Shown here: positions 2,262 to 47,710 of the stretch, piece after piece
How positions within the stretch are numbered: the stretch's first letter is position 1
Layout of the letters: each line of letters opens with the position of its first letter
Assembly: GCA_964556925.1 (NCBI GenBank)
Contig: CAZKXY010000003.1
Location: forward strand, 1 to 62,258
Length of the DNA: 62,258 nucleotides
From: an uncultured Planctomycetales bacterium
Lineage (GTDB): Bacteria; Omnitrophota; Gorgyraeia; Aquiviventales; Aquiviventaceae
Reading direction: 5' to 3'
Translations under genes and position numbers: made by a program
The notes under the pieces: model-generated
Told to the model about the DNA's origin: nothing
Seen by the model: the letters and a program-made list of their open reading frames with translations, nothing else
The model's database searches: none

Positions 2262-3173
2262 TCAGCTCACGTAGCCGAGCTGGCGGAGCATCCGCTCGTC
2301 CTGTCGCCACTGCGGAGCGACTTTCACCCACAGCCCCAGGTACACCTTGCGTCCGACGAGCCGCTCGATCTGGCGGCGCGCCTCCTGGCCGATCTGCTTG
2401 AGCATCGCCCCGCCCCGCCCGATTAGGATGGCTTTCTGGCCCGGGCGCTCGACAAGAATCGTCGCCTGGATGGTGACGAGCTGTTCGCCGTGCTCAAGGG
2501 CGTCGATCAGCACGGCGACCGCATGAGGAACCTCCTGGTGCGTGGCCAGCAGGGCCTGTTCCCGGACGAGCTCGCCGATCAACTGACGCGTGGTCTGGTC
2601 CGTCCGCTGGCCCGGCTCATACCAGCGCGGACCTTCCGGCAACAGGCTCACGAGGCGCTCCAGCAGCAGCGGCATCTGATCGCCGGTCCGCGCGGACACC
2701 GGGATCGCCTCTGCAAACAGGCGGGTCTTCGCGCAGGCCTCCAGGATGGGCAGCAGCCTCGGCTTCTTGACGAGGTCGATTTTGTTGATCGCGACGAGCG
2801 CCGGCCGCTTGGCCTGCCGGAGCCGGCCGAACACCCGCTCATCGTCGGGCGTGATGCCGGCGCGCGCGTCGATGACCGCGACGAGGACGTCCGCTTCTTC
2901 CACCACCGCGTGGGCGGCCTTCAGCATCGACCGGCCGAGGGCGTGCTCCGGCCTGTGGAACCCCGGCGTGTCGAGGAACAACACCTGCGCATCCGCGCGC
3001 GTCAGCACCCCGAGGAGGCGCGTCCGCGTCGTCTGCGGCCGGGGCGAGACAATCGCGAGCTTCTCGCCGAGGAAATAGTTGAGGAGGGTGGACTTTCCGA
3101 CGTTAGGACGGCCGATGATGCCGACGACGCCCGATCGGTAGCTCGGACTCAGCCGCCCAGATAGCGGGGTCAT
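2262..3173 (-). CDS. era: GTPase Era
   Basis: GRPNVGKST, QTTR, DTPG, NKID, KH domain with LGLWVKV; ATGA overlap with polX stop. Confidence 0.97.
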   Translation of the reverse strand: MTPLSGRLSPSYRSGVVGIIGRPNVGKSTLLNYFLGEKLAIVSPRPQTTRTRLLGVLTRADAQVLFLDTPGFHRPEHALGRSMLKAAHAVVEEADVLVAVIDARAGITPDDERVFGRLRQAKRPALVAINKIDLVKKPRLLPILEACAKTRLFAEAIPVSARTGDQMPLLLERLVSLLPEGPRWYEPGQRTDQTTRQLIGELVREQALLATHQEVPHAVAVLIDALEHGEQLVTIQATILVERPGQKAILIGRGGAMLKQIGQEARRQIERLVGRKVYLGLWVKVAPQWRQDERMLRQLGYVS

Positions 3174-4909
3174 CGCCGCGTCAAGCGGCGCCGCTTCTGC
3201 GCGATCCACATATGGAGCTGCTCGCGGGAGAAACAGTTGAGGAGGTGCCTCGGCCCCGCCCACGCGCGCCGCGCCACCCCGAGGCCGATGGCCATGTTGT
3301 CGAGCTGGTCTCGCGCATGGGTGTCGGTCGAAATGGCCAGCATGGCGCCGGCGTCCTTGGCCTGCCGGGCGGCGGTGTCGCAGAGGTCGAGCCGCTTGGG
3401 GTAGGCGTTGATCTCCAGCGCCGTCTGGGTCTCCTGGGCCGCCTTGTAGACCGCGTCGAGGTCAACCGGAGAGGCGTCGCGCTGGCCCATCAGGCGGCCG
3501 GTCGGGTGCGCGATCAGCGTCACGTAGGGATTGCGCATGGCGGTGATGAGGCGCCTCGTCAACATCGCTTCGCCCTGCGTCAATCCCGAGTGGATCGAGC
3601 CGATGACAAAATCCAGTTGGGCCAGCACCTGATCGGGGTAGTCGAGTCGTCCCTCGGCCAGGATATCCACCTCAGCGCCCATGAGCAGGCGGAAGCGCGT
3701 GAAGCGCCTGTTCAGCGCGCGGATCTTCGCCATCTGCTGCCGCAGCCGATCCACAGACATCCCATGGGCGACTTTCAGCGAGGGCGAGTGGTCGCAGATG
3801 GCCAGGTACTGGTAGCCACGCGCCTCCCCCAGCCGGGCGAGATCCTCCAATCGGTCGCTGCCGTCCGACCACGTGGTGTGGATGTGGAAATCCCCCCGGA
3901 TGTCCTCCGCCTCGACCAGCCGTGGCAGCCGGCCGGCCTTGGCCGCTTCGATCTCGCCGGTATCTTCCCGGAGCTCCGGGGGGATCCATCGCAGTCCCAA
4001 CACCCGGTAGACGTCAGCCTCTTCCCTGCCCGCGAGCCAGGCGTTGGCCCTGGCGCGAAACACCCCATACTCGTTGACCTTCAACCCCTGGCGGACCGCC
4101 AGCTCCCTCAAGTGGACGTTGTGCTCTTTCGAACCGGTGAAATACTGGAGCGCGGCCCCGAAACTCTTTGGCGCCACGACCCGCAGGTCCACCTGGAGAC
4201 CCTCGGGCGTTAGGATCGAGGCCTTCGTCGTGCCGGCCGCCAGCACCCGCGCGCAAAATCGGGACGCCTGGAGGGCCTGCATCACCCGGGGCGGATGCGT
4301 GGACGCCGCGAGGAGATCCAAGTCCCCGATGGTTTCCTTCATCCGCCGCAGGCTGCCGGCGGTTGACACCCGGCTCACCCCGGACACCTTCCGCAACAGC
4401 GCCAGCAGCTCATGGGCCAGCGCGAGGGCGATCCCCAAGTGCATCCGCTCGCGGCCGCGTTTGACCACGGCGATCCCTTTGAGGAGGTTGTCCTCCCTCT
4501 TCGCCTGGAAGCCCGGCAGGCCGCGCAGGCGGTGACGGCGCGCCGCGTCTTCCAACTCGCTGACACTGGCAATCCGCAGCCGCTCGGTGAGCAGCTTGGC
4601 CGTCTTCGGACCCAAGCCGGGCACTTCGAGCAGCTCCAACACCCCGCGCGGGATCATGCGTTGAACCTGCTCAATCGCCGCGATGGCCCCGGTCTTCAGG
4701 TACTCGGCGATCTTGTCAGCGAGATCGGCGCCGATGCCGGAGAGCTCCGTGAGCCTGCCCTCCGCCGCAAGGCGTTCCAGATCCCCGCTGAAGCTCTCCA
4801 GGTTCTGCGCGGCGCGCCGATAGGCCCGAATCCGAAACGGGTTCTCCCCGCGGTATTCCAACAGGTCGGCCATCTGCGCGAAGAGCGTGGCGATCTCGTG
4901 CTGCTTCAT
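3170..4909 (-). CDS. polX: DNA polymerase X / PHP 3'-5' exonuclease
   Basis: ENPFRIRAY, GSLRR.KETIGDLD, YFTGSKEHN, PHP HIHTTWSDG; ORF-track extension to 5035 is repeat sequence. Confidence 0.95.
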   Translation of the reverse strand: MKQHEIATLFAQMADLLEYRGENPFRIRAYRRAAQNLESFSGDLERLAAEGRLTELSGIGADLADKIAEYLKTGAIAAIEQVQRMIPRGVLELLEVPGLGPKTAKLLTERLRIASVSELEDAARRHRLRGLPGFQAKREDNLLKGIAVVKRGRERMHLGIALALAHELLALLRKVSGVSRVSTAGSLRRMKETIGDLDLLAASTHPPRVMQALQASRFCARVLAAGTTKASILTPEGLQVDLRVVAPKSFGAALQYFTGSKEHNVHLRELAVRQGLKVNEYGVFRARANAWLAGREEADVYRVLGLRWIPPELREDTGEIEAAKAGRLPRLVEAEDIRGDFHIHTTWSDGSDRLEDLARLGEARGYQYLAICDHSPSLKVAHGMSVDRLRQQMAKIRALNRRFTRFRLLMGAEVDILAEGRLDYPDQVLAQLDFVIGSIHSGLTQGEAMLTRRLITAMRNPYVTLIAHPTGRLMGQRDASPVDLDAVYKAAQETQTALEINAYPKRLDLCDTAARQAKDAGAMLAISTDTHARDQLDNMAIGLGVARRAWAGPRHLLNCFSREQLHMWIAQKRRRLTRR

Positions 4910-5049
4910 CCCACTACCTGCCGGTGTCCCGCCCCGCCAAGGGCGTGGCGGGACGGCCAGCCCCCACAGTCGTCCGCGGCCCGCTGGCCCGGCGGCGCCT
5001 CGATGCGGAGGGGCGGCACGCGCCGCCTGCAGCAAGTAGATGGGATCAT
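4906..5049. repeat. Family A palindromic element A1 (136 bp between two ATGA)
   Basis: Minus strand: ATGA-TCCCATCTACTTGC...GCAGGTAGTGGG-ATGA; left TGA is the MFS stop, right ATG is the polX start. Confidence 0.9.
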
Positions 5050-6242
5050 CCCGTCACCGCGCGAGGATCCGGAACCCGGCGCAACAGGAGGACGCCGATG
5101 ACCAGCAAGCCCATCATGGCCCCGATCGCCTCCTGATAGCGGGACGCCTCCGACACCAACAGCCCCCACAGCAAGGGGCCCAGGATCGAGGAGACGCGGG
5201 CGAAGAACCCCGCCAACCCGAACAACTCGGCGAGCTGGCCTTTGGGGGACAGCTGGACAATGAGCACGCGAGACGTCGCCCACGTCGAGCCCAGGCAAAA
5301 CCCAATGAGCGGCCCGGCAATCCAGAGCCAGGCGGCCGTCGGGCGGATGAGCAGGATGGCGAGGGCCGCGATCCATCCCAGCCAAATCCACGTCAAGGTC
5401 GACTTGGCCCCCCATCGGGCCGTCAGCCGCCCGAATACCAAGGAGCCAGCGACAGCGAAGATCTGACTGAACACGAAGAACCGGATCAGGTCGGCCTCCG
5501 TCATGCCGATGACCTTCTTCGTATAGACCCCCATGAACACCAGCACGGTATTGATGGCGTTGAGGCTGAAGAACGCGGCCCAGAAATACCGCCAGAGGCC
5601 GGCGAGCGCTCTCGCGGACCGGAGGGTCATGGCCAACCGGAGCGCCGCCACCCGCAGCGCCGTGCCCAGGGGCACCCGCTGGCGGGCATCCGGGGCCTCA
5701 CGAATGAGGAGGAAGCTGGGTAGCGCGAACAGCAAGAAGAACACGGCAGAGGGGATGAACGCGGCGTGATGCCCTCCCGCCTTGACGAACGGCCAGAGCA
5801 GGAGCAGTCCTAACGCGCTTCCCAGGTAGCCGAACGAGGCGCCGACCCCTGAGGTCTGACCCAGGCGGTTCGGATCCGTCACGGTCCAGAGCAACGCATC
5901 GTAAAACACCGTGCCAAGCTGATAGCACACGTTCGCCACCGCGAACAACCCAAGCCCAAGGCCGAGATGCGACGTGGACCCAATGGCGATGGTCGCCGCG
6001 ACACAGCCGTAGGTGGTCCAGCGGAGAAACCGGACCCGCTCCCCGGTGGCATCGGAGACCGCCCCGCAGAACGGCATCAAGATCCCGACGCAGATCATGG
6101 ACACGCCCAAGGCCACGCTGTACGAGAGCTCGGGCGCGCCGCGATCCTCGACGACCCAGAGGGGGAAGTAGAACGACAACATCGCGACGGCGAAAAAGGT
6201 GTTGGCGAGGTCGAACAGGGCCCAGGCGAGCACCCGGCCCAT
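5046..6242 (-). CDS. MFS transporter (UMF1/Atg22-like)
   Basis: AWALFDLANTFF start motif, about 12 hydrophobic segments. Confidence 0.9.
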   Translation of the reverse strand: MGRVLAWALFDLANTFFAVAMLSFYFPLWVVEDRGAPELSYSVALGVSMICVGILMPFCGAVSDATGERVRFLRWTTYGCVAATIAIGSTSHLGLGLGLFAVANVCYQLGTVFYDALLWTVTDPNRLGQTSGVGASFGYLGSALGLLLLWPFVKAGGHHAAFIPSAVFFLLFALPSFLLIREAPDARQRVPLGTALRVAALRLAMTLRSARALAGLWRYFWAAFFSLNAINTVLVFMGVYTKKVIGMTEADLIRFFVFSQIFAVAGSLVFGRLTARWGAKSTLTWIWLGWIAALAILLIRPTAAWLWIAGPLIGFCLGSTWATSRVLIVQLSPKGQLAELFGLAGFFARVSSILGPLLWGLLVSEASRYQEAIGAMMGLLVIGVLLLRRVPDPRAVTG

Positions 6243-8462: not shown

Positions 8463-10255
8463 CCCGCGGAGGGTTCGTACAACCCCTGCAGCAGCGCCGC
8501 ATATCGCTGCGCGATGATCGACCGCTTCGCCTTCAACGTCGGCGTCAGCTCGCCGGTCGCCTGGGAAAACTCCTGATCGAGCACGGCGATTTTCTTCACC
8601 TGCTCAAAGCTTGGCAATCCCTGCTGCTTGGCCTGGACCCGCTCCCAATAGAAGGCGGCCACGCGGGGGTCCCGCACCAGCTCGGGCAGCGCCCTGCCGG
8701 GGATTTCCTGCTCCAGCGCGAAGCGGCGCAACCGCTCGGTGTTCGGCACGATCAGCGCCACGCAGTACGGCCGGCGGTCCCCGTAGACGAACGCCTGGCT
8801 GATATACGGATCGGCGATCAACAGATTTTCCAACTTCTGTGGGGCGACGAACTTTCCGCCCGCGGTCTTGAGCAGGTCTTTCTTCCGGTCGGTGATCGCG
8901 AGGCGGCCATCCTCGTCGAGATGGCCGATGTCCCCGGTATGGAACCATCCCTCGCTCATCACCGCGGCGGTCTGCTCAGGTTTCTGGTAGTAGCCCTGCA
9001 TGACATGGGGCCCCCGCGTGAGGATTTCCCCGTCCTCGGCGATCCGGACCTCCACCCCCGGCACCGGATGCCCCACGGTGCCGAATCGCGGGCGGGAGGG
9101 GTCATTGGCGGCGATCACCGGGGAGGTCTCGGTCAGCCCATAGCCCTCGGCGATGGTCACGCCGACGCGATAAAAAAACTCCCCAATGGACGGCGCAAGC
9201 GGCGCGCCCCCCGAGACGAAAAACCGCAGCCGTCCCCCCAGGCGCGCCCTGAGCTTCCGGAAGACCAGCGCATGCGCCAGCTGTCCCTGCACGTGCAGGC
9301 GCAGGGGAACCGGTTGATCGGCCAACCGCTTGGCGGCGATCGCCTGCCCGACGCGCAGCGCCCATTCTGCGATGCGGCGCTTCGCGGCAGGCGCCTGGCG
9401 GACCCCGTCCTGGATGCGCGCAGCGAGCTTCTCAAAAAACCGCGGCACAGCCAGCATGATGGTGGGGCGCGCCGCCAGCATGTCCTGGGGGATCGTGTCC
9501 ATGCTCTCCGCATACGCCACGGCCGCCCCCACGGAGAGCATGAGGTACCACCCGCCCATGCGCTCGAACACGTGCGACAAGGGCAGGAAGGACAGATGCC
9601 GGTCCGCCCCGGTGATCTGGAAGACCTGCAGGCAGGCGGCGACGTTGGAGAGGAAGTTCTGATGGGAGAGCATGACGCCTTTGGGCTCCCCGGTCGTCCC
9701 GGACGTGTAAATGATCGTCGCCGTGTCGTGAGGGCGCACCTGGCGCAGCCGGCGCTCGAAGAAATCGCGCAGCTTCGGTCCCTGCTCCCTCCCCTTGGCG
9801 AGCGCGTCCGACCAGCCCAGGACCAGCGCGTGATGGTGCTGGGTCGGCTCCATGACAATCAGCTGCCGGATCGAGGAGGACTGCCGGCTGACCTCGATGA
9901 GCTTGGCCGCTTGCTCGGAGGTTGAGGCGATGCCGATCGACGGCTGGCAATCCCGGCAGATGAGCCGGATCTCCGGCACGGTCAGGCTGGGATAGATCGG
10001 CACCGTCCACGCCCCCACGGCCTGAATCGCCAGGTCGGCCACGCCCCACTCCGGGCGGTTCTCTGACAGGAGGAGGACCCGGTCGCCGGGGTTGACCTGG
10101 AGGGACAGGAGGTGCGTGCTGAGGGCGCGGACAGCCTCGGCAGCCTCTCGCCAGCTCGTGGGACGGAAGCCCCCCGCCCGCTTGGCGAAGAACAGCGGCT
10201 TGCGGCCCAAGGCCTCGGCCTGCCGGAAAAAGAGCGCGGGGATCGTCTCGCTCAT
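8459..10255 (-). CDS. fadD: Long-chain fatty acid-CoA ligase
   Basis: YTSGTTGEPKG, GYGLTE, GWFHTGDIG, DRKKDL. Confidence 0.93.
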   Translation of the reverse strand: MSETIPALFFRQAEALGRKPLFFAKRAGGFRPTSWREAAEAVRALSTHLLSLQVNPGDRVLLLSENRPEWGVADLAIQAVGAWTVPIYPSLTVPEIRLICRDCQPSIGIASTSEQAAKLIEVSRQSSSIRQLIVMEPTQHHHALVLGWSDALAKGREQGPKLRDFFERRLRQVRPHDTATIIYTSGTTGEPKGVMLSHQNFLSNVAACLQVFQITGADRHLSFLPLSHVFERMGGWYLMLSVGAAVAYAESMDTIPQDMLAARPTIMLAVPRFFEKLAARIQDGVRQAPAAKRRIAEWALRVGQAIAAKRLADQPVPLRLHVQGQLAHALVFRKLRARLGGRLRFFVSGGAPLAPSIGEFFYRVGVTIAEGYGLTETSPVIAANDPSRPRFGTVGHPVPGVEVRIAEDGEILTRGPHVMQGYYQKPEQTAAVMSEGWFHTGDIGHLDEDGRLAITDRKKDLLKTAGGKFVAPQKLENLLIADPYISQAFVYGDRRPYCVALIVPNTERLRRFALEQEIPGRALPELVRDPRVAAFYWERVQAKQQGLPSFEQVKKIAVLDQEFSQATGELTPTLKAKRSIIAQRYAALLQGLYEPSAG

Positions 10256-22453: not shown

Positions 22454-22645
22454 TCAGGGCGAGGCGGGTGTCGCGTCGGATGTGGGCGCGGCCTTTGCCG
22501 CCTCGGCGGAGGCTTTCTCGCGCTCGGTATCCCAGCACCGCCGCTTGCAAAAATACCGGCCGTTCCGATAATACCACTGCTTGCGCGTCAGCCGCTTGCC
22601 GCACGAGGCGCAGGTCGGTGCGCGCGTCGCGATACTCATGGGCAC
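22454..22645 (-). CDS. Small putative Zn-binding protein (CxxC...CxxxC)
   Basis: CASCGK..YYRNGRYFCKRRC; SD-like GAGGTGAGG upstream; low-complexity tail. Confidence 0.65.
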   Translation of the reverse strand: MPMSIATRAPTCASCGKRLTRKQWYYRNGRYFCKRRCWDTEREKASAEAAKAAPTSDATPASP

Positions 22646-22646
22646 C

Positions 22647-23306
22647 TCACCTCATCGTATGGGGCAGATCCCCTAAGGGACACCGCCTGCACTCAGGCCT
22701 GCGCCGATGACAGAACCGCTTGCCGACCGCCACGAGCAGGGCATGATACTCGTTGTACGTGGCCGGCGGCGGGCCCTCCTGCATGACCAGCTGCTGCGCG
22801 TCATCATAGGTCGCGCGCGCCGACACGAGCCGGTGCCGCCTGAACACCCGCGCCGTGTAGGCGTCCACGACGAACACGGGCTTTCGGCCGGCGTAGAGCA
22901 ACATGGAATCGGCCGTCTCCGGCCCGATCCCGTTGAGCGCCAGGAGCTCCTGCCGCAGCCTCGGCCACGGCGTGCGAAACATCCGCGCGGGGCGCCCCCC
23001 GTAGCGCGCGAGATACCAGCGGGCGAAGCCGGCCAGCCGCCCCGCCTTCTGCCGGAAATACCCCGCCGGCCGGATCGCCTGGGCCAGCGTGCGCCTCGAT
23101 GCCGCTGCGATTCGCCGCGGCTGGAGCAGTCGGGTCCGCTTCAACCGCGCGATGGCCTGCTCGACATTGCGCCAGTTCGTCGCCTGCGTGAGAATGGCGC
23201 CGACCATCATTTCAAATGCGCTGTCGGCTGGCCACCACCCTTGCGGCCCGAACGCGCCCAGCAGGCGCCGGTAGATCACCCGAAGCGTGGCTGATGCGTC
23301 GTGCAT
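22647..23306 (-). CDS. Endonuclease III-related HhH-GPD protein
   Basis: WWPA, GAILTQ.TNWRNV, GIGPETADS, VVDAYT, EYHAL, Cys cluster at C-terminus. Confidence 0.9.
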   Translation of the reverse strand: MHDASATLRVIYRRLLGAFGPQGWWPADSAFEMMVGAILTQATNWRNVEQAIARLKRTRLLQPRRIAAASRRTLAQAIRPAGYFRQKAGRLAGFARWYLARYGGRPARMFRTPWPRLRQELLALNGIGPETADSMLLYAGRKPVFVVDAYTARVFRRHRLVSARATYDDAQQLVMQEGPPPATYNEYHALLVAVGKRFCHRRRPECRRCPLGDLPHTMR

Positions 23307-23373
23307 CCCCCTCAGCGGCGTTTCGCCACGAACTGGTCGCGGTGTGGGACGGCGTACGGACCCGGGCGGCGCT

Positions 23374-23478
23374 TTAGAACACGCGCCACGCGACCCAGTG
23401 CCAGGCGAGGGCGATCGAGAGTCCGATCGCGAGCCCGAGCATCAGGTCGGGCAGGCGGGGATTGAAGAACCCAAACAC
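23374..23478 (-). CDS. Putative 34-aa single-pass membrane peptide
   Basis: GGAGG-5 nt-GTG; VFGFFNPRLPDLMLGLAIGLSIALAWHWVAWRVF; own promoter upstream. Confidence 0.5.
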   Translation of the reverse strand: MFGFFNPRLPDLMLGLAIGLSIALAWHWVAWRVF

Positions 23479-23518
23479 CACATCCTCCGACGGTTGACAC
23501 GGCTCCACGAGAGGCCTT

Positions 23519-23547
23519 AGTCTAGCCGATTCTCCGTCGGTGATCAA
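23519..23547 (-). promoter_or_regulatory. Sigma70-type promoter
   Basis: TTGATC (23547-23542), 17 bp, TAGACT (23524-23519). Confidence 0.55.
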
Positions 23548-23587
23548 GAAAAAAAGCGGCTGCCCCGCGGGCACGCGGGACAGCCGC
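23546..23587 (-). terminator. Rho-independent terminator after the 49-aa gene
   Basis: Minus strand GCGGCTGTCCCGCG-TGCC-CGCGGGGCAGCCGC followed by TTTTTTTCTT. Confidence 0.85.
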
Positions 23588-23609
23588 AATCCGTCTCGGA
23601 TCCCCTGGC

Positions 23610-23759
23610 TTACTTCGTGGAGACGACCTTTAGCCCCATCACCACGGCGAGGATCACGAGAATTCCCTTGTAGGCGTCCAGGGGAAAGTGTAGGCCGATC
23701 AAGGCACCCAGCACGATCCCTGTCAGGACGTCGTGCTTGAACAGTTTCTCAAGCTTCAT
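23610..23759 (-). CDS. 49-aa hydrophobic membrane peptide (below the ORF-track cutoff)
   Basis: MKLEKLFKHDVLTGIVLGALIGLHFPLDAYKGILVILAVVMGLKVVSTK; SD AAGGAGGTGA; own promoter and terminator. Confidence 0.8.
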   Translation of the reverse strand: MKLEKLFKHDVLTGIVLGALIGLHFPLDAYKGILVILAVVMGLKVVSTK

Positions 23760-23780
23760 TCTCGTTCTCACCTCCTTCTT

Positions 23781-23796
23781 CTAGACGTTTGTCTAG
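23781..23796. promoter_or_regulatory. Palindromic operator-like site / RNA hairpin
   Basis: CTAGAC-GTTT-GTCTAG; 12-bp core identical to 46911-46922. Confidence 0.65.
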
Positions 23797-23844
23797 AGGA
23801 GAGGAGCCGGTTTCTTCCAGCGGCCGGACACACTCTCAAGTGGT

Positions 23845-23873
23845 ACTATACCACATTTGTCCCCATGAATCAA
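23845..23873 (-). promoter_or_regulatory. Sigma70 promoter of the 49-aa gene
   Basis: TTGATT (23873-23868), 17 bp, extended -10 TG-G-TATAGT (hexamer 23850-23845); AT-rich tract upstream. Confidence 0.7.
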
Positions 23874-23920
23874 GAGACACGATTTCTGCATAACCTATTT
23901 ATTTTATTGAAGTTACTAGA

Positions 23921-24271
23921 TTAAAGTGCCGACAGATGGTGGGAGAGACGGTCTAAATACACAGACAAACGTCTCTTAGTTTGCGGGGTCAAATCGAGGA
24001 AGGTCACCCCGATATCAAATTGCTCGCTGTCCGGGATGTTCCGGAACCACACGGCGCGACCCCTGGCGGTGATGGGCTCTTCCCCGGGCTCGCAGACGAC
24101 CTCAACGGTGAACTCCGTGGACACCGGCACGACGGTGGCGCTCAGACAGCGCAGACCCTCAACGCTGAGGTCTTTGGTGAGGGTCTCCACCACCTGGGCG
24201 CTCGCCGGTTTGTACAGCCGAACTGGCCGGTAGGCCCGAATCCGCTGGTGCTGGCGCCGCTCGTCCATCAC
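23921..24271 (-). CDS. PilZ domain protein
   Basis: ERRQHQR and DLSVEG motifs, GRAVW, IGVTF. Confidence 0.85.
   Translation of the reverse strand: MMDERRQHQRIRAYRPVRLYKPASAQVVETLTKDLSVEGLRCLSATVVPVSTEFTVEVVCEPGEEPITARGRAVWFRNIPDSEQFDIGVTFLDLTPQTKRRLSVYLDRLSHHLSAL
23963..23974. promoter_or_regulatory. Third exact copy of the AGAC-N4-GTCT 12-mer (inverted), inside the pilZ 3' end
   Basis: AGACAAACGTCT, about 90 bp upstream of the -35 of the 49-aa gene. Confidence 0.45.
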
Positions 24272-24277
24272 CCCTTT

Positions 24278-24306
24278 AGGCTAGCACGCGACCCCGCCCC
24301 TGTCAA
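24278..24306 (-). promoter_or_regulatory. Sigma70 promoter, probably leaderless pilZ mRNA
   Basis: TTGACA (24306-24301), 17 bp, TAGCCT (24283-24278), 6 nt before GTG. Confidence 0.6.
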
Positions 24307-24313
24307 CGTCACC

Positions 24314-24362
24314 AAAAGGTGTCAGACACCTTTCCCGCTTTGAAAGGTGTCTGACACCTTTT
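24314..24362. repeat. Family C double palindrome C2, between divergent promoters
   Basis: AAAAGGTGTCAGACACCTTTCCCGCTTTGAAAGGTGTCTGACACCTTTT. Confidence 0.9.
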
Positions 24363-24368
24363 CCCAGC

Positions 24369-24397
24369 TTGCGTCGTCAGAGCCCGTGCGTTACAAT
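24369..24397 (+). promoter_or_regulatory. Sigma70 promoter for the exeA-like operon
   Basis: TTGCGT (24369-24374), 17 bp, TACAAT (24392-24397). Confidence 0.6.
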
Positions 24398-24421
24398 ACC
24401 CCCAGAGCACGACGGAGACGC

Positions 24422-25243
24422 ATGTACCTCGAGTTCCTCGGCCTGCGCGAGAAGCCGTTTTCCATCACGGCCGATCCGTCCTTCCTCTACCTCTCCCGCA
24501 AGCATCGCGAAGCCCTCTCGCACATGGTCTATGGCATCCGCGAACGCAAGGGCTTTGTGGAAATCACCGGCGAAGTCGGCACCGGCAAGACCACCCTGTG
24601 CAAAGCCTTGCTGCGCCATCTGGATCCCACGGTGAAGACCGCGCTCCTGTTGCAACCCCAGCTCTCTGAGCTGCAGCTGTTGCAGGCGGTGGTGCAGGAT
24701 TTCGGCCTCCACCCGCTGAAAGGCGGCGGTCGGCTCGGCCTGTTCAACCAGCTCAATGCGTTCCTCCTCGAGCAGGCCGAGCGCGGCCATAACCTCGTCC
24801 TCATTCTGGATGAAGCGCAGAACCTCAGCCTGCGGCTGCTGGAGCAGATCCGGATGCTCTCGAACCTGGAGACCGACAAGAACAAGCTCATCCAGATCAT
24901 CCTCGTCGGCCAGCCGCAGCTGCGCGAGAAGCTGGCGATGCCCGCGCTGGAGCAGCTGCGGCAGCGCATCGGCGTGCGGTATCACATGACCGCGCTGGAC
25001 CAGGATGAGGTGCGCACCTACATCCACCATCGCCTGCGGGTGGCCGGGTCGGACGGCACGCTCGAATGGACGACGGACGGGATGGAGGAGGTCTCCCTCT
25101 GCTCCCGCGGCGTGCCGCGGCTGATCAACCTGATCTGCGACCGCTCGCTCTTGGCCTGCTACATCTTTCGGGTCAAGCGCGTGGATGCCGAGATCGTCCG
25201 GCGCAGCTACCAGGAGATGACTGGGCAAGTGCTCGTGTCGTAA
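24422..25243 (+). CDS. ExeA/GspA-family AAA ATPase (no peptidoglycan-binding tail)
   Basis: MYLEFLGL.EKPF, GEVGTGKTT, LILDEAQNL, LVGQPQL, GVPRLINL. Confidence 0.9.
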   Translation: MYLEFLGLREKPFSITADPSFLYLSRKHREALSHMVYGIRERKGFVEITGEVGTGKTTLCKALLRHLDPTVKTALLLQPQLSELQLLQAVVQDFGLHPLKGGGRLGLFNQLNAFLLEQAERGHNLVLILDEAQNLSLRLLEQIRMLSNLETDKNKLIQIILVGQPQLREKLAMPALEQLRQRIGVRYHMTALDQDEVRTYIHHRLRVAGSDGTLEWTTDGMEEVSLCSRGVPRLINLICDRSLLACYIFRVKRVDAEIVRRSYQEMTGQVLVS

Positions 25244-44532: not shown

Positions 44533-45270
44533 TCAGGCCTCCTTGCGTTGGCGTCGCGTGCGTGGCGTGGCTCGCTGAGGCATGAGGCCAGCCGCGCGCA
44601 AACTGATAATCCCATCGGTGCCGATGATGACATGATCGAGCACCTCGATGCCGAGTATGGCGCCGGCCTCCGCCAGCCGGGCCGTCAAGACGAGATCGTG
44701 CTCCGATGGCTCCGGATCGCCGGAGGGATGGTTGTGGACGAGGATGACCGCGGCCGCCGACGCGGCGATCGCCTCGTGGAACACCTCGCGGGGATGGACG
44801 ACGCTGGCGGAGAGGCTGCCGACGGCGATCGGGCTTTCGCGGATGAGCCGATGCCGGGCGTCTAGCAGGAGGGCGACCACGTGCTCCTTCTGCTTATCGA
44901 GGAGGTGCGGCCGGACCAGGGCCGCGACCGCGTCCGGCGTGTCGACGGGGGGGCGACGGCCGTTGTGACGGGAGGGCAGGCTCAAGCGCCTGGCCAGCTC
45001 TGTCGCCGCCTTAAGCTGCGCCGCTTTGGCCGGCCCGAAGCCGTGGACCGCCGCGAGCTGCTCCACGGAGGCCTGCGCGATGCCCTGAAGGGTGCCGAAG
45101 GCCGCCAGCAGCCGCCGCGCGCTGATGAGCACGGACTCGCCGGCGACGCCGCGGCCGAGCACGCAGGCGAGCAGTTCCTGCTCGGAGAGCGCCTCGGTCC
45201 CGAGGCGGGCGAGCCGCTCGCGCGGCCGATCGGCAAGCGGCAGATCACGGACAGTCAAGCTGGGAGGCAT
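44533..45270 (-). CDS. radC: RadC / JAB domain protein
   Basis: RPRERL, VHPREVF, HNHPSGDPEPS, EVLDHVII. Confidence 0.96.
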   Translation of the reverse strand: MPPSLTVRDLPLADRPRERLARLGTEALSEQELLACVLGRGVAGESVLISARRLLAAFGTLQGIAQASVEQLAAVHGFGPAKAAQLKAATELARRLSLPSRHNGRRPPVDTPDAVAALVRPHLLDKQKEHVVALLLDARHRLIRESPIAVGSLSASVVHPREVFHEAIAASAAAVILVHNHPSGDPEPSEHDLVLTARLAEAGAILGIEVLDHVIIGTDGIISLRAAGLMPQRATPRTRRQRKEA

Positions 45271-45280
45271 AGATTCCGGT

Positions 45281-45310
45281 ATCTTAGCACAAGGAGGGCT
45301 CGCTCACCAA
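45281..45310 (-). promoter_or_regulatory. Possible extended -10 promoter for radC
   Basis: TG-C-TAAGAT (hexamer 45286-45281), 10 nt before ATG; weak -35. Confidence 0.45.
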
Positions 45311-45332
45311 CGTCGAGCCAGTGTACAAATGA

Positions 45333-45389
45333 GGGGACGCTTCTATTTTTTCCAACCGGATCTGTGCGGGAAAACATAGAAGTGTCCCC
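45333..45389. repeat. Family F inverted repeat F2, overlapping the dinB 3' end
   Basis: GGGGACGCTTCTATTTTTTCC...GGAAAACATAGAAGTGTCCCC. Confidence 0.75.
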
Positions 45390-45665
45390 GGGACTGTCGT
45401 TGCCACAGTCGCGTGGCGCGCACGAGCGCGGCGTCCCCGAACCGGTCGGTGATCCGGTCGCAGGCGCGCACGAGCCGCTCGTGCCGCGCCACCTCGGGCA
45501 GCCACCACGCCTGCCGCTCGGCGTAGGACAGTCCGGAGACCGCGATTCCCAGCATCCGGATCGGCTGGGCGAGCGGCGTCGCCGCGAGGATCCGGCAGCC
45601 GACGGAGTAGAGGTCCTCGCCATCGTCCAGGAATCGATCCAGGGTCCGCGCGCGGGACCAGGTCG

Positions 45666-45717
45666 TGAACCCCGCCCCACGGGATGTCGAGGTAGGCAGG
45701 CCGTGGGGCGGGGTGAA
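45666..45717. repeat. 44-bp palindromic insertion with 4-bp duplication, in frame in dinB
   Basis: TGAA-CCCCGCCCCACGG-N18-CCGTGGGGCGGGG-TGAA; removing 48 bp restores DFTTWSRART. Confidence 0.85.
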
Positions 45718-46461
45718 GTCGCGCGCGCGCAGCGTGAGGGTGACGGTCCGGCCCGACGCGCCGGCCAGGCGCAGGCGGCGGCCGACTTTCTCCGCCAGCT
45801 CCAGCAGCACCGCCCGCAGCCGCGCCGGATCGCCGGTATCGTGGGCGAGCGTGTGCAGGTGCCCCATCGATTTCGGCAACGGCAGGTGCTCCGCCCGCAC
45901 CACCGGCGCCTCATCCATCCCCCGCGCCAGCCGCCACAGATGCGCGCCCGCGCCAGCTCGCCGCAGGCCGCGATCCCCACGGCGTTGAGCGCCGCCTGAA
46001 ACGCCGGCCCGATCCCGCACAGCTCCTCGACGGGCAAGTCCGCGAGCACGACCGGCACCTGCGCGGCGGTGATCTGCATCAGGCCGTTCGGCTTCTGTCG
46101 CGAGGACGCCAGCTTGGCGATGAGCTTGTTCGGCCCGATCCCGATGGAGCACGAAAGGCCCAGTTCGCGCCGCACGGCGCGCTGCAACGTGGTCGCCACC
46201 GCCCTCGGCCCGCCGAACCGCGCGGCCGTGTCGGTCAGGTCGGCAAACGCCTCATCGATGGACACGCACTCGACGTCCGGCGTGTACTGCTCTATCCGGG
46301 CCGCGACTCGGCGGAAGAGCTGCGCGTACTGCTCCGGGTTGCCTTCGACGAGAATCGCGTGCGGACAGCGGGCGAGCGCTTCCTGCAGCGGCATGCCCGT
46401 GGTCACCCCAAAGGCGCGGGCCTCGTAGGAGGCGGTGGCCGCAACGGTGCGCGCCTGCCGG

Positions 46462-46515
46462 CCTGCCTGCGCCGCGCAATGACCTGTCCGGCCAGTCCTC
46501 GGCGCGGCAGGCAGG
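46462..46515. repeat. 54-bp palindromic in-frame insertion in dinB
   Basis: CCTGCCTG...CAGGCAGG termini; removal gives IVCGNRQARTV. Confidence 0.8.
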
Positions 46516-46621
46516 TTGCCGCAGACGATGACGGGTTTGCCCCGCAGCCAGGGGTTGGCCTGCTGCTCGACGCTCGCAAAGAAGGCATCCATGTCGAGAT
46601 GGAGGATGACGCGCTCCATGC

Positions 46622-46882
46622 TCAGCCCTCCAGCGCCAGGCGCGTGAGCTGCCAGCGCAGGCTGCGCGGCTCAAAGCGCAGCTCGTAGGCCGCCTCGCCG
46701 TCGGTCAGCGCAAAGCAGCGGCGCACCAGCTGCCCGTCCCGTTCGGTCCAGACGCAGGTCACCTGGCGCACAGGCCGCCGCCGGCCTTGCCACACGAAGG
46801 CCATCGGCCGCATCCCGCGCGGCGTAAAGCGCGCCTCCACCTCGACGACCTCTTCGATCCACTCGACCTGCGTGACGGTCAT
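46622..46882 (-). CDS. Small protein of the type often found next to dinB (DUF6504-like)
   Basis: P..F.WQGRR..V..V...W, F..TDG...YEL.F....W.L pattern (recalled resemblance). Confidence 0.75.
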   Translation of the reverse strand: MTVTQVEWIEEVVEVEARFTPRGMRPMAFVWQGRRRPVRQVTCVWTERDGQLVRRCFALTDGEAAYELRFEPRSLRWQLTRLALEG

Positions 46883-46902: not shown

Positions 46903-46931
46903 TCTATACCAGACGTTTGTCTGGTTGTCAA
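46903..46931 (-). promoter_or_regulatory. Consensus sigma70 promoter with an 18-bp palindromic operator in its spacer
   Basis: TTGACA (46931-46926), 17 bp, TATAGA (46908-46903); ACCAGAC-N4-GTCTGGT at 46908-46925. Confidence 0.85.
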
Positions 46932-46932
46932 T

Positions 46933-47583
46933 CTACCGCGAGCGGAGGACGCCGCGACGGGAACAGGCGTGGCTCAACGGGCAGCGGCTGCACCACGGCG
47001 AGGTGGGGTGGCAGAGGTTCTGGCCCAAGGTCACCAGGAGGTCGTTGTAGATGCGCCAGTACTGGCGCGGGAGCTTGCCGCGCAGCGCCATCTCGGTCTG
47101 CTCCGGCGTGTTCGTCCGCACGTAGCCCCAGCGGTTGCTGATGCGGTGGACGTGGGTGTCGACGCAGATGCCGTCCTTGGCAAACGCCAGCGTCACGACC
47201 AGGTTGGCGGTCTTGCGCCCGACGCCCTTGATCGCCAACAGCTCCTCGAGGTCCTCAGGCACCCGGCCGCCGTGGCGCGTCAGCAGCGTGCGGCACACGG
47301 CCCGGATCGTCCGGGCCTTCGTGCGATAGAAGCCGACGGGGAAGATCGCGCGTTCGATCGTCCGCGTCGAGAGGCGCAGCATGGTTCGCGGCGTACGCGC
47401 CAGATGGAAGAGCCGCTGCGAGGCGGCGCGCGTCGTCTCGTCTTTGGTCCGCAGGCTCAGGAGGCAGCTGATGAGCGTCGTGAACGGATCCTCGCGGTAG
47501 CGGCTGACGACCGGCTCCTCCCACCGCCGCACCACCCGCCTCACCGTGCGGAGAACCTGGTCGATATTGCGGTTGCTCACCAT
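46933..47583 (-). CDS. nth: Endonuclease III
   Basis: LLSLRTKD, GVGRKTANL, VDTHVHRI, C-X6-C-X2-C-X5-C. Confidence 0.93.
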   Translation of the reverse strand: MVSNRNIDQVLRTVRRVVRRWEEPVVSRYREDPFTTLISCLLSLRTKDETTRAASQRLFHLARTPRTMLRLSTRTIERAIFPVGFYRTKARTIRAVCRTLLTRHGGRVPEDLEELLAIKGVGRKTANLVVTLAFAKDGICVDTHVHRISNRWGYVRTNTPEQTEMALRGKLPRQYWRIYNDLLVTLGQNLCHPTSPWCSRCPLSHACSRRGVLRSR

Positions 47584-47598
47584 GGTGACTTGCGAAAA

Positions 47599-47676
47599 CC
47601 CTGCATGATTCGGAAAGAGCGGACCGTTTCCCTTTTCCTCTCGTTCAACTGGAGGAAAAGGGAAGCGGTCCGGCTG
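47599..47676. repeat. Family E element E2
   Basis: GCATGATTCGGAAAGAGCGGACCGTTTCCCTTTTCC...GGAAAAGGGAAGCGGTCCGGCTG. Confidence 0.85.
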
Positions 47677-47710
47677 GTGCGCTCGCAACGCTAGCGGTCC
47701 GGCTGGTGCG

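Follow-up and report, generated by a model that had tools for sequence, protein, structure and literature searches.

A conserved small protein gene of Omnitrophota shares a putative operator with the dinB operon

Results

The 62,258-nt stretch analyzed here, contig CAZKXY010000003.1 of an Omnitrophota metagenome-assembled genome (MAG), is referred to in its entirety as the window. We describe a gene of the window, pep49, which encodes a 49-aa protein, and a palindromic site that pep49 has in common with the promoter of the dinB operon. Both units lie on the minus strand, as do the window genes given below with their positions, together with their promoters, leaders, and terminators. A first-pass annotation had proposed a full transcription unit at pep49, consisting of a promoter, a leader, a Shine-Dalgarno (SD) sequence, an open reading frame (ORF), and a terminator, and every part of it was found between 23546 and 23974. 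The GC content of the window is ∼68% and the pep49 stretch is a local GC minimum. The sigma-70 promoter (23845–23873) consists of a TTGATT -35 element (23873–23868), a 17-nt spacer, and a TG-extended TATAGT -10 element (23850–23845). It is the sole sigma-70-like match in 23300–24450, where 0.1 would be expected, and its aTaTGGTATAnT is kept in all orthologous loci. The inferred transcription start site (TSS) is near 23838, which gives a leader of ∼79 nt. The SD, AAGGAGGTGA, is at 23768–23777 and its GGAGGTGA is kept in orthologous loci. The ORF (23610–23759) begins with an ATG at 23759 and its stop codon ends at 23610; translation of this interval gives MKLEKLFKHDVLTGIVLGALIGLHFPLDAYKGILVILAVVMGLKVVSTK, an exact match to the 49-aa peptide that had been proposed. 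Downstream, an intrinsic terminator (23546–23587) is formed by a 14-bp GC-rich stem with 12 GC pairs (23587–23556) and a subsequent T-run. An equivalent terminator is found 3′ of the pep49 orthologs, and pep49 has its own promoter and its own terminator at every orthologous locus examined. The description of the gene as unannotated needs to be qualified: the ORF was missed by the first-stage ORF track, but JGI and NCBI records already list a hypothetical protein.

For comparison, 17 pep49 loci were assembled from the window and 16 further genomes. In a word-indexed search, pep49 had more than 120 homolog clusters, nearly all of which are 49 to 52 aa in length with 61 to 92% identity. The named sources of these clusters are Omnitrophota or mis-binned MAGs only, and JGI groundwater contigs contain identical copies, listed there as a 49-aa hypothetical protein. 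The median pairwise ratio of nonsynonymous to synonymous substitution rates (dN/dS) is 0.13, and dS ranges from 0.7 to greater than 1. The alignment reveals invariant columns at M1, K5, G14, G18, G22, Y30, and L34, and T13, P26, K31, and the M41-G42-L43-K44 stretch are nearly invariant. The peptide is therefore conserved in relatives, by number of clusters, by dN/dS, and by a fixed synteny that is described below, and pep49 is a genuine, vertically inherited small protein gene of Omnitrophota. When 1.8 billion representatives were searched exhaustively with a profile, only 34 relatives were returned, essentially all of 45 to 85 aa and all with the pattern MK..(D/H)xLTG(I/V)VxGxxxGLxYP...L(L/V)V...GLK. 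By this common size and pattern, pep49 is a self-contained small-protein family and not a piece of a larger protein. Searches of pep49 and 35 homologs with Pfam, NCBIfam, and PADLOC returned nothing meaningful, and a tblastn search of plasmids and phages with pep49 gave no match. One JGI homolog carries the label "YfcA", for which we found no support.

The AlphaFold2 model of pep49 is a helical hairpin with helices at residues 9 to 24 and 28 to 47 and a turn at F25-P26-L27 (mean pLDDT 82). Both helices are hydrophobic and have basic ends, and pep49 is predicted to be a small inner-membrane protein with a two-helix hairpin. The charge distribution seems to favor a topology in which both termini are on the inside. 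Helix 1 would contain a glycine zipper (GxxxGxxxG) at T13-G14xxxG18xxxG22. The conservation of specific residues seems to favor a defined protein partner over a nonspecific pore, and the glycine zipper may keep an oligomeric-channel model alive.

Directly 5′ of the SD, where the first-pass annotation had placed a palindrome, is a perfect 18-bp palindrome, TCTAGAC-AAAC-GTCTAGA (TCTAGACAAACGTCTAGA, 23780–23797), which we refer to as O1. It extends from about +42 to +59 relative to the inferred TSS and is 4 nt 5′ of the GGAGG. The AGAC-N4-GTCT core is present three times in the window (23783, 23963, and 46911); shuffling gives an expectation of 0.5 copies, and as many as three were seen in 3 of 100 shuffles. 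Each copy in the window is the same 12-mer, AGACGTTTGTCT, or its complement, for which ∼0.007 copies are expected (2 x 62258 / 4^12). Across loci, the palindrome generalizes to YAGAC-N4-GTCTR. A perfect O1 core is conserved in 14 of the 17 pep49 leaders and the core is always 33 to 36 nt before the pep49 ATG. Within 264 kb of Omnitrophota-type DNA, we found 19 distinct perfect YAGAC-N4-GTCTR sites, as compared to about 1 expected by chance. Fourteen are in pep49 leaders and five are in dinB-operon promoters, and the proposal that pep49 and dinB have an operator in common is supported across many genomes. The half-sites are fixed and the spacers vary (AAAC, AAAT, ATTT, GTTT, GGAT, TTCC, AGGC, and GTTA), the first five of which are found in the leaders. 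A relaxed motif search of the window revealed no further convincing intergenic sites. A one-mismatch site in locus L011 was set aside, as it is inside a coding region.

In the window, the dinB-operon promoter (46903–46931) has the sequence TTGACA-ac-CAGACAAACGTCTG-g-TATAGA, in which the operator (46910–46923) is located between the -35 and -10 elements. The operon (44533–46882) encodes a DUF6504-like protein (46622–46882), DinB (45255–46619), and RadC (44533–45270), with Pfam matches to IMS and RadC and a sub-threshold match to DUF6504. Both dinB and radC belong to the canonical SOS genes (PMC8565304). Five of six dinB-operon loci (the window, L020, L022, L100, and L101) have the layout TTGACA-N2-YAGAC-N4-GTCTR-(g)TATAxx; in the remaining locus, the small ORF lacks a promoter and lies fused behind nth. 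A metagenome scan with DinB returned mostly distant phyla; only L020 and L022 were informative. Since the dinB operator is between the -35 and -10 elements and is not transcribed, it must act as DNA. The fixed half-sites, the free spacer, and this copy in an untranscribed promoter spacer point to binding by a dimeric DNA-binding repressor. Shared repressor control of pep49 and the translesion-polymerase operon is thus well supported.

The first gene of the dinB operon encodes a protein of 81 to 86 aa with a consistent sub-threshold match to DUF6504 (the window ORF given above; L020, 4274–4525; L021, 1648–1893; L022, 866–1120). The 86-aa protein of the window has an all-beta AlphaFold2 model (pLDDT 79), for which Foldseek and PDB sequence searches gave no significant match. 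Only 20 homologs of this ORF were found, mostly on short contigs, and a search of the published literature on DUF6504 found no paper. The ORF holds the first-gene position that lexA has in the lexA-dinB operons of other phyla. Some dinB operons of the clade also contain the membrane genes RDD, LemA, and DUF2207. The dinB gene of the window itself is frameshifted (45379–46619), with a break near 45945–45957 that places residues 2 to 207 and 219 to 395 of the intact L020 ortholog in frames -1 and -3, respectively. The disruption looks real in this population, because three contigs that were assembled independently, from different samples, have the identical broken sequence; promoter and operator are nonetheless intact. 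Separately, L021, which is from a different lineage, contains a perfect inverted repeat with ∼19-bp arms (AATGCGTAACGCGTAATGT ... ACATTACGCGTTACGCATT, 1520–1590) 5′ of its small-ORF/dinB pair.

The third copy of the core in the window, O2 (AGACGTTTGTCT, 23963–23974), is within the last 17 codons of the gene directly 5′ of pep49, which encodes a PilZ-domain protein (23921–24271; Pfam PF07238, E = 5e-13). O2 is centered ∼130 nt 5′ of the pep49 TSS and 180 bp from O1, and spans the codons R-R-L-S at the 3′ end of the ORF. Among 13 genomes, with a GC content at third codon positions of around 0.85, rare codons are used at O2 (CGT in 13/13, TCT in 13/13, and TTG in 11/13), as compared to two to four codons for each adjoining conserved residue. 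In L104, the second Arg is replaced by Gln (CAA) and the site is still AGAC-AATT-GTCT. That rare synonymous codons are kept and that the site survives an amino acid change indicates that O2 is constrained at the nucleotide level. O2 is a weaker site, because its left half-site is CGAC in half of the genomes across the 17 loci. A terminator scan from PilZ to the pep49 promoter found none in between, and O2 might limit read-through from PilZ. DNA looping between O1 and O2 was considered and is unsupported; the spacings of 170 to 195 bp have no helical phase.

Since O1 is transcribed, it is also a 7-bp hairpin in the pep49 mRNA. This palindrome hairpin was the only consensus structure returned by RNAalifold for 14 leaders. 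The first-pass annotation had further proposed that the leader folds to bury the SD. Such a fold is part of the minimum free energy structure of the window leader and of that of L004, but the SD is unpaired in most orthologous leaders, and the extension of the hairpin that would bury it is mostly absent from them; what is conserved is the palindrome hairpin. In L006, the SD is paired by a different pairing, and the other folds leave it free. Because the SD is unpaired in most orthologs, a translationally locked mRNA is not a conserved property of pep49. The overall fold of the window leader is ordinary, with a z-score of -1.5. A second, variable hairpin in the 5′ part of the leader, P1 (23807–23827), has a GGAGGA-like apical loop (GGAAGA in the window). 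P1 is present in 12 of 17 leaders, and L001, L002, and L009, whose leaders are short, lack it; its covariation was judged by eye, as the alignment is too poor for a formal covariation test.

Several of these features hint at an added RNA role of the pep49 palindrome. It is always 3 to 6 nt from the SD, whereas relative to the promoter it is found anywhere between about +6 and about +45. The 7-bp leader arms (TCTAGAC) are better conserved than the flanks of the dinB site, the stem of L012 shows a compensatory change and that of L108 a U-G change, and P1 recurs in most leaders. The palindrome could then be mainly an RNA hairpin for translation, stability, or protein binding, with transcriptional repression secondary or absent at this site. 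We consider this quite improbable. The stem sequence is invariant in 14/17 genomes despite dS above 0.7, which is the signature of a protein-DNA site and not of a drifting stem, and the identical motif is present in untranscribed promoter spacers. In addition, the SD is unpaired in most predicted folds, and an Rfam scan of 22500–25000 gave only chance-level matches (E above 0.8, far below gathering scores).

The gene order around pep49 is nearly constant. A divergent AAA_22 (ExeA-like) gene is followed by PilZ, pep49, small2 (34 aa), an HhH-GPD glycosylase gene in about 10 genomes, and genes for Zn-ribbon, HIT, and PilZ2 proteins; L011 misses part of this order, and the adjacency of PilZ and pep49 is invariant. 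Type I toxins have a patchy distribution, in contrast to this deep and vertical synteny, which resembles that of housekeeping genes. It bears on one suggestion of the first-pass annotation, that pep49 is analogous to TisB and DinQ; a toxin of that kind would be LexA-controlled, encoded by a locked mRNA, depolarizing, and neutralized by an antisense RNA. The peptide is small and hydrophobic with basic ends, its operator is common with dinB, a fold that buries the SD can form in the leaders of the window and of L004, and an oligomeric pore could arise through the glycine zipper. We nevertheless find this very improbable. The first-pass annotation had itself noted a missing antisense promoter, and a promoter scan of 14 orthologous loci, covering both strands, revealed none that is conserved. 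Its other suggestion, a small membrane division inhibitor induced by the SOS response, would agree better with the data. Moreover, the SD lock is not conserved, the protein has two helices in 49 aa and no similarity to known families, and the gene is phylum-wide in a fixed block under a dN/dS of 0.13, with no copies on plasmids or phages.

Further features of the locus are noted here. Upstream of the pep49 -35 element is an AT-rich block (23874–23920) with a partial inverted repeat, GTAACTT...AGGTTAT. The repeat is semi-conserved, as GTAACTT-N14-AAGTTAC in L003 and ATAACTA...TAAGTTAT in L005, and may bind an activator or an architectural protein or serve as an upstream promoter (UP) element. 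Approximately 130 nt 3′ of pep49 is small2, a conserved 34-aa small membrane ORF with a GTG start (VFGFFNPRLPDLMLGLAIGLSIALAWHWVAWRVF, 23374–23478) and its own promoter, TTGATC-17-TAGACT, at about 23519–23547. It was found by tblastn in 12 of 13 GTDB loci with 55 to 74% identity; the one other locus, L011, has a divergent copy. The public call for small2 is a 71-aa ORF and is probably over-extended. A CCGWCGG palindrome is present twice at small2, in the promoter spacer (23534–23540) and directly 5′ of the SD (23487–23493), and this arrangement is repeated in most orthologous small2 loci. It mirrors the operator logic of pep49 and dinB with a different motif, which may reflect a second regulator.

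Long inverted repeats, AAAGGTGTCAGACACCTTT-cccgc-TTTGAAAGGTGTCTGACACCTTTT, are located between the PilZ and AAA_22 genes (24314–24362 of the window). Related GGGGTCAG(A/G)C...G(T/C)CTGACCCC repeats are 5′ of recA, where they overlap its -35 element (L016, about 9740–9960; L018, about 5790–5860). Both may be REP-like (repetitive extragenic palindrome) elements or the site of another regulator. Other repair genes of the window encode PolX with a PHP domain (3170–5035) and two HhH-GPD glycosylases, one just 3′ of pep49/small2 (22647–23306) and one just 5′ of the dinB operon (46933–47688). The operator was not found in the promoters of these three genes.

Discussion

The regulator that would bind YAGAC-N4-GTCTR is, in our estimation, fairly likely to be a LexA-type damage repressor. 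In the lexA-dinB operons of other lineages, the promoters contain palindromes (e.g., TTGACAacCATACATATGTATGgTAT and TTGACTacTGCACAAATGTGCAgTA) in the same register as the operator of the window dinB promoter: TTGACA ac CAGAC AAAC GTCTG gTATAGA in the window can be compared with TTGACA ac CATAC ATAT GTATG gTATTGA in L027 and with TTGAC(T/A) ac TGCAC AAAT GTGCA (g/c)TA in L072, L039, and L085. Given the same register and the AC-N4-GT core, YAGAC-N4-GTCTR fits the LexA-box architecture NNNAC-N4-GTNNN. The two resemble each other in the 14-bp dyad, the core, the position between the -35 and -10 elements, and the location 5′ of dinB. They differ in that we found no description of a YAGAC/GTCTR half-site, no box at recA, and no cognate lexA. 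The Gram-positive LexA box is CGAAC-N4-GTTCG. As a side observation, the lexA-dinB operons of unidentified other lineages (L023, L025–L028, L030, L039, L072, and L085) contain four NNAC-N4-GTNN box variants: CATAC-ATAT-GTATG, TGCAC-AAAT-GTGCA, CAAC-ATAT-GTTG, and AAAC-AAAT-GTTT.

Our current hypothesis, to which we give slightly more credence than doubt, is that pep49 is a membrane protein gene under a LexA-type repressor shared with the dinB operon and that its product is a damage-response effector. The identity of the repressor, induction by damage, the roadblock mechanism, and the effector role are what we infer. A dimeric repressor bound to YAGAC-N4-GTCTR would keep the strong, extended -10 promoter of pep49 off, and the same repressor, most likely LexA-type with a motif that is not yet described, would occlude the small-ORF/dinB/radC promoter. 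At pep49, its site would be in the leader, within transcribed DNA: about +42 to +59 in the window, and immediately past the TSS in genomes with short leaders. The weaker O2 in the 3′ end of PilZ would be a second site, and with both O1 and O2 occupied, neither pep49 transcription nor read-through from PilZ would proceed. Once the repressor is lost, a well-translated pep49 mRNA would be made, and its product would be a membrane-located effector of the damage response, with checkpoint proteins of the SidA/YneA/SosA type, which bind a membrane partner, as its closest analogy.

A number of observations weigh against this hypothesis. There are just two target contexts, and it is dinB and radC alone that give the putative regulon its damage label. 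The pep49 operator is located past the TSS and in every case next to the SD. In L012, the operator has a symmetric GGAC...GTCC change that preserves the RNA hairpin, and the O2 of the same genome keeps AGAC/GTCT. A role at the RNA level is therefore conceivable. A tblastn search with E. coli LexA found no lexA in the window or in the fetched Omnitrophota loci, out to ±10 kb of pep49, recA, and the dinB operon, and matched only the non-Omnitrophota lexA-dinB loci. Likewise, no LexA-like ORF is present within ±4 to 10 kb of pep49 in the 17 loci. This also sets pep49 apart from yneA, sosA, chiZ, and divS, which adjoin lexA, although sidA is not next to lexA either. Lastly, the box is missing from the recA promoters of L016/L017, which are from the same organism, and of L018/L019, from a relative, the RIFCSPHIGHO2_02_FULL_67_20 MAG. 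Because recA is outside LexA control in some phyla, the box-free recA weakens the case for LexA without refuting it.

These observations could be accommodated by a shared regulator that is neither LexA nor damage-responsive, for instance one linked to envelope stress, growth phase, or cyclic di-GMP, with pep49 an ordinary membrane protein and perhaps a partner of PilZ. The invariant adjacency of PilZ and pep49, the location of O2 inside PilZ, the recA promoters without a box, the missing lexA, and the RDD, LemA, and DUF2207 membrane genes in some dinB operons of the clade are consistent with such a regulator. We judge it unlikely, however, as dinB and radC, which are among the targets, are hallmarks of the SOS response, the register of the operator is that of the LexA boxes of lexA-dinB promoters elsewhere, pep49 has a promoter and terminator separate from PilZ, and the PilZ protein is a single 116-aa domain without a DNA-binding domain.

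The LexA-type hypothesis can be extended to a bolder form, in which YAGAC-N4-GTCTR is an undescribed SOS box of Omnitrophota, pep49 is a phylum-wide effector that halts division or envelope growth in response to DNA damage, and the operator doubles as a hairpin beside the SD, so that transcription and translation would both be governed by a single palindrome. We hold this extension only tentatively and regard it as more doubtful than probable. In a still bolder variant, the 86-aa DUF6504-like protein could itself be the repressor.

Omnitrophota is an uncultured phylum of largely very small cells, for whose DNA-damage response we found no published account; a literature search for LexA with Omnitrophica or Omnitrophota likewise found no paper. 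The locus offers a candidate operator motif and a candidate regulon of two members, and pep49 belongs to an uncharacterized family without a Pfam entry, whose genes rank with the best conserved small genes of the clade. Should LexA be the repressor, the system would represent a new branch of LexA motif evolution and a new, independently evolved small membrane SOS effector. If it is not, a new regulator would couple a translesion-polymerase operon to a membrane protein.

Among known systems, TisB/IstR-1 and DinQ/AgrB of E. coli resemble pep49 in that a small hydrophobic peptide gene is combined with a damage-regulon-type operator and a structured 5′ leader. However, the pep49 operator is in the leader and not over the promoter, and pep49 has no conserved antisense promoter and no conserved SD occlusion. 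TisB and DinQ are 27 to 29 aa with one helix, whereas pep49 is 49 aa with two, and the deep vertical conservation and fixed synteny of pep49 are also unlike these toxins. Small membrane SOS effectors are widespread (PMC6051672, PMC6851548, PMC9578287), and SOS-induced small membrane checkpoint proteins include SidA in Caulobacter, YneA in Bacillus, SosA in Staphylococcus, and ChiZ/DivS in Actinobacteria (PMC9578287, PMC6851548, PMC6051672, PMC13396833). There is no sequence similarity between these proteins and pep49, which has two helices and no extracellular domain, and pep49 is conserved over a phylum-level clade as compared to the family or order level for the checkpoint proteins. The common ground is limited to size, membrane location, and apparent coregulation with damage genes. 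Even so, pep49, like the checkpoint proteins, is a short membrane protein with a lineage-specific sequence, encoded in its own small unit under a repressor that is apparently shared with damage-tolerance genes. By analogy, pep49 would be closer to SOS membrane effectors of the SidA/YneA/SosA type than to TisB/DinQ, and a checkpoint role is plausible.

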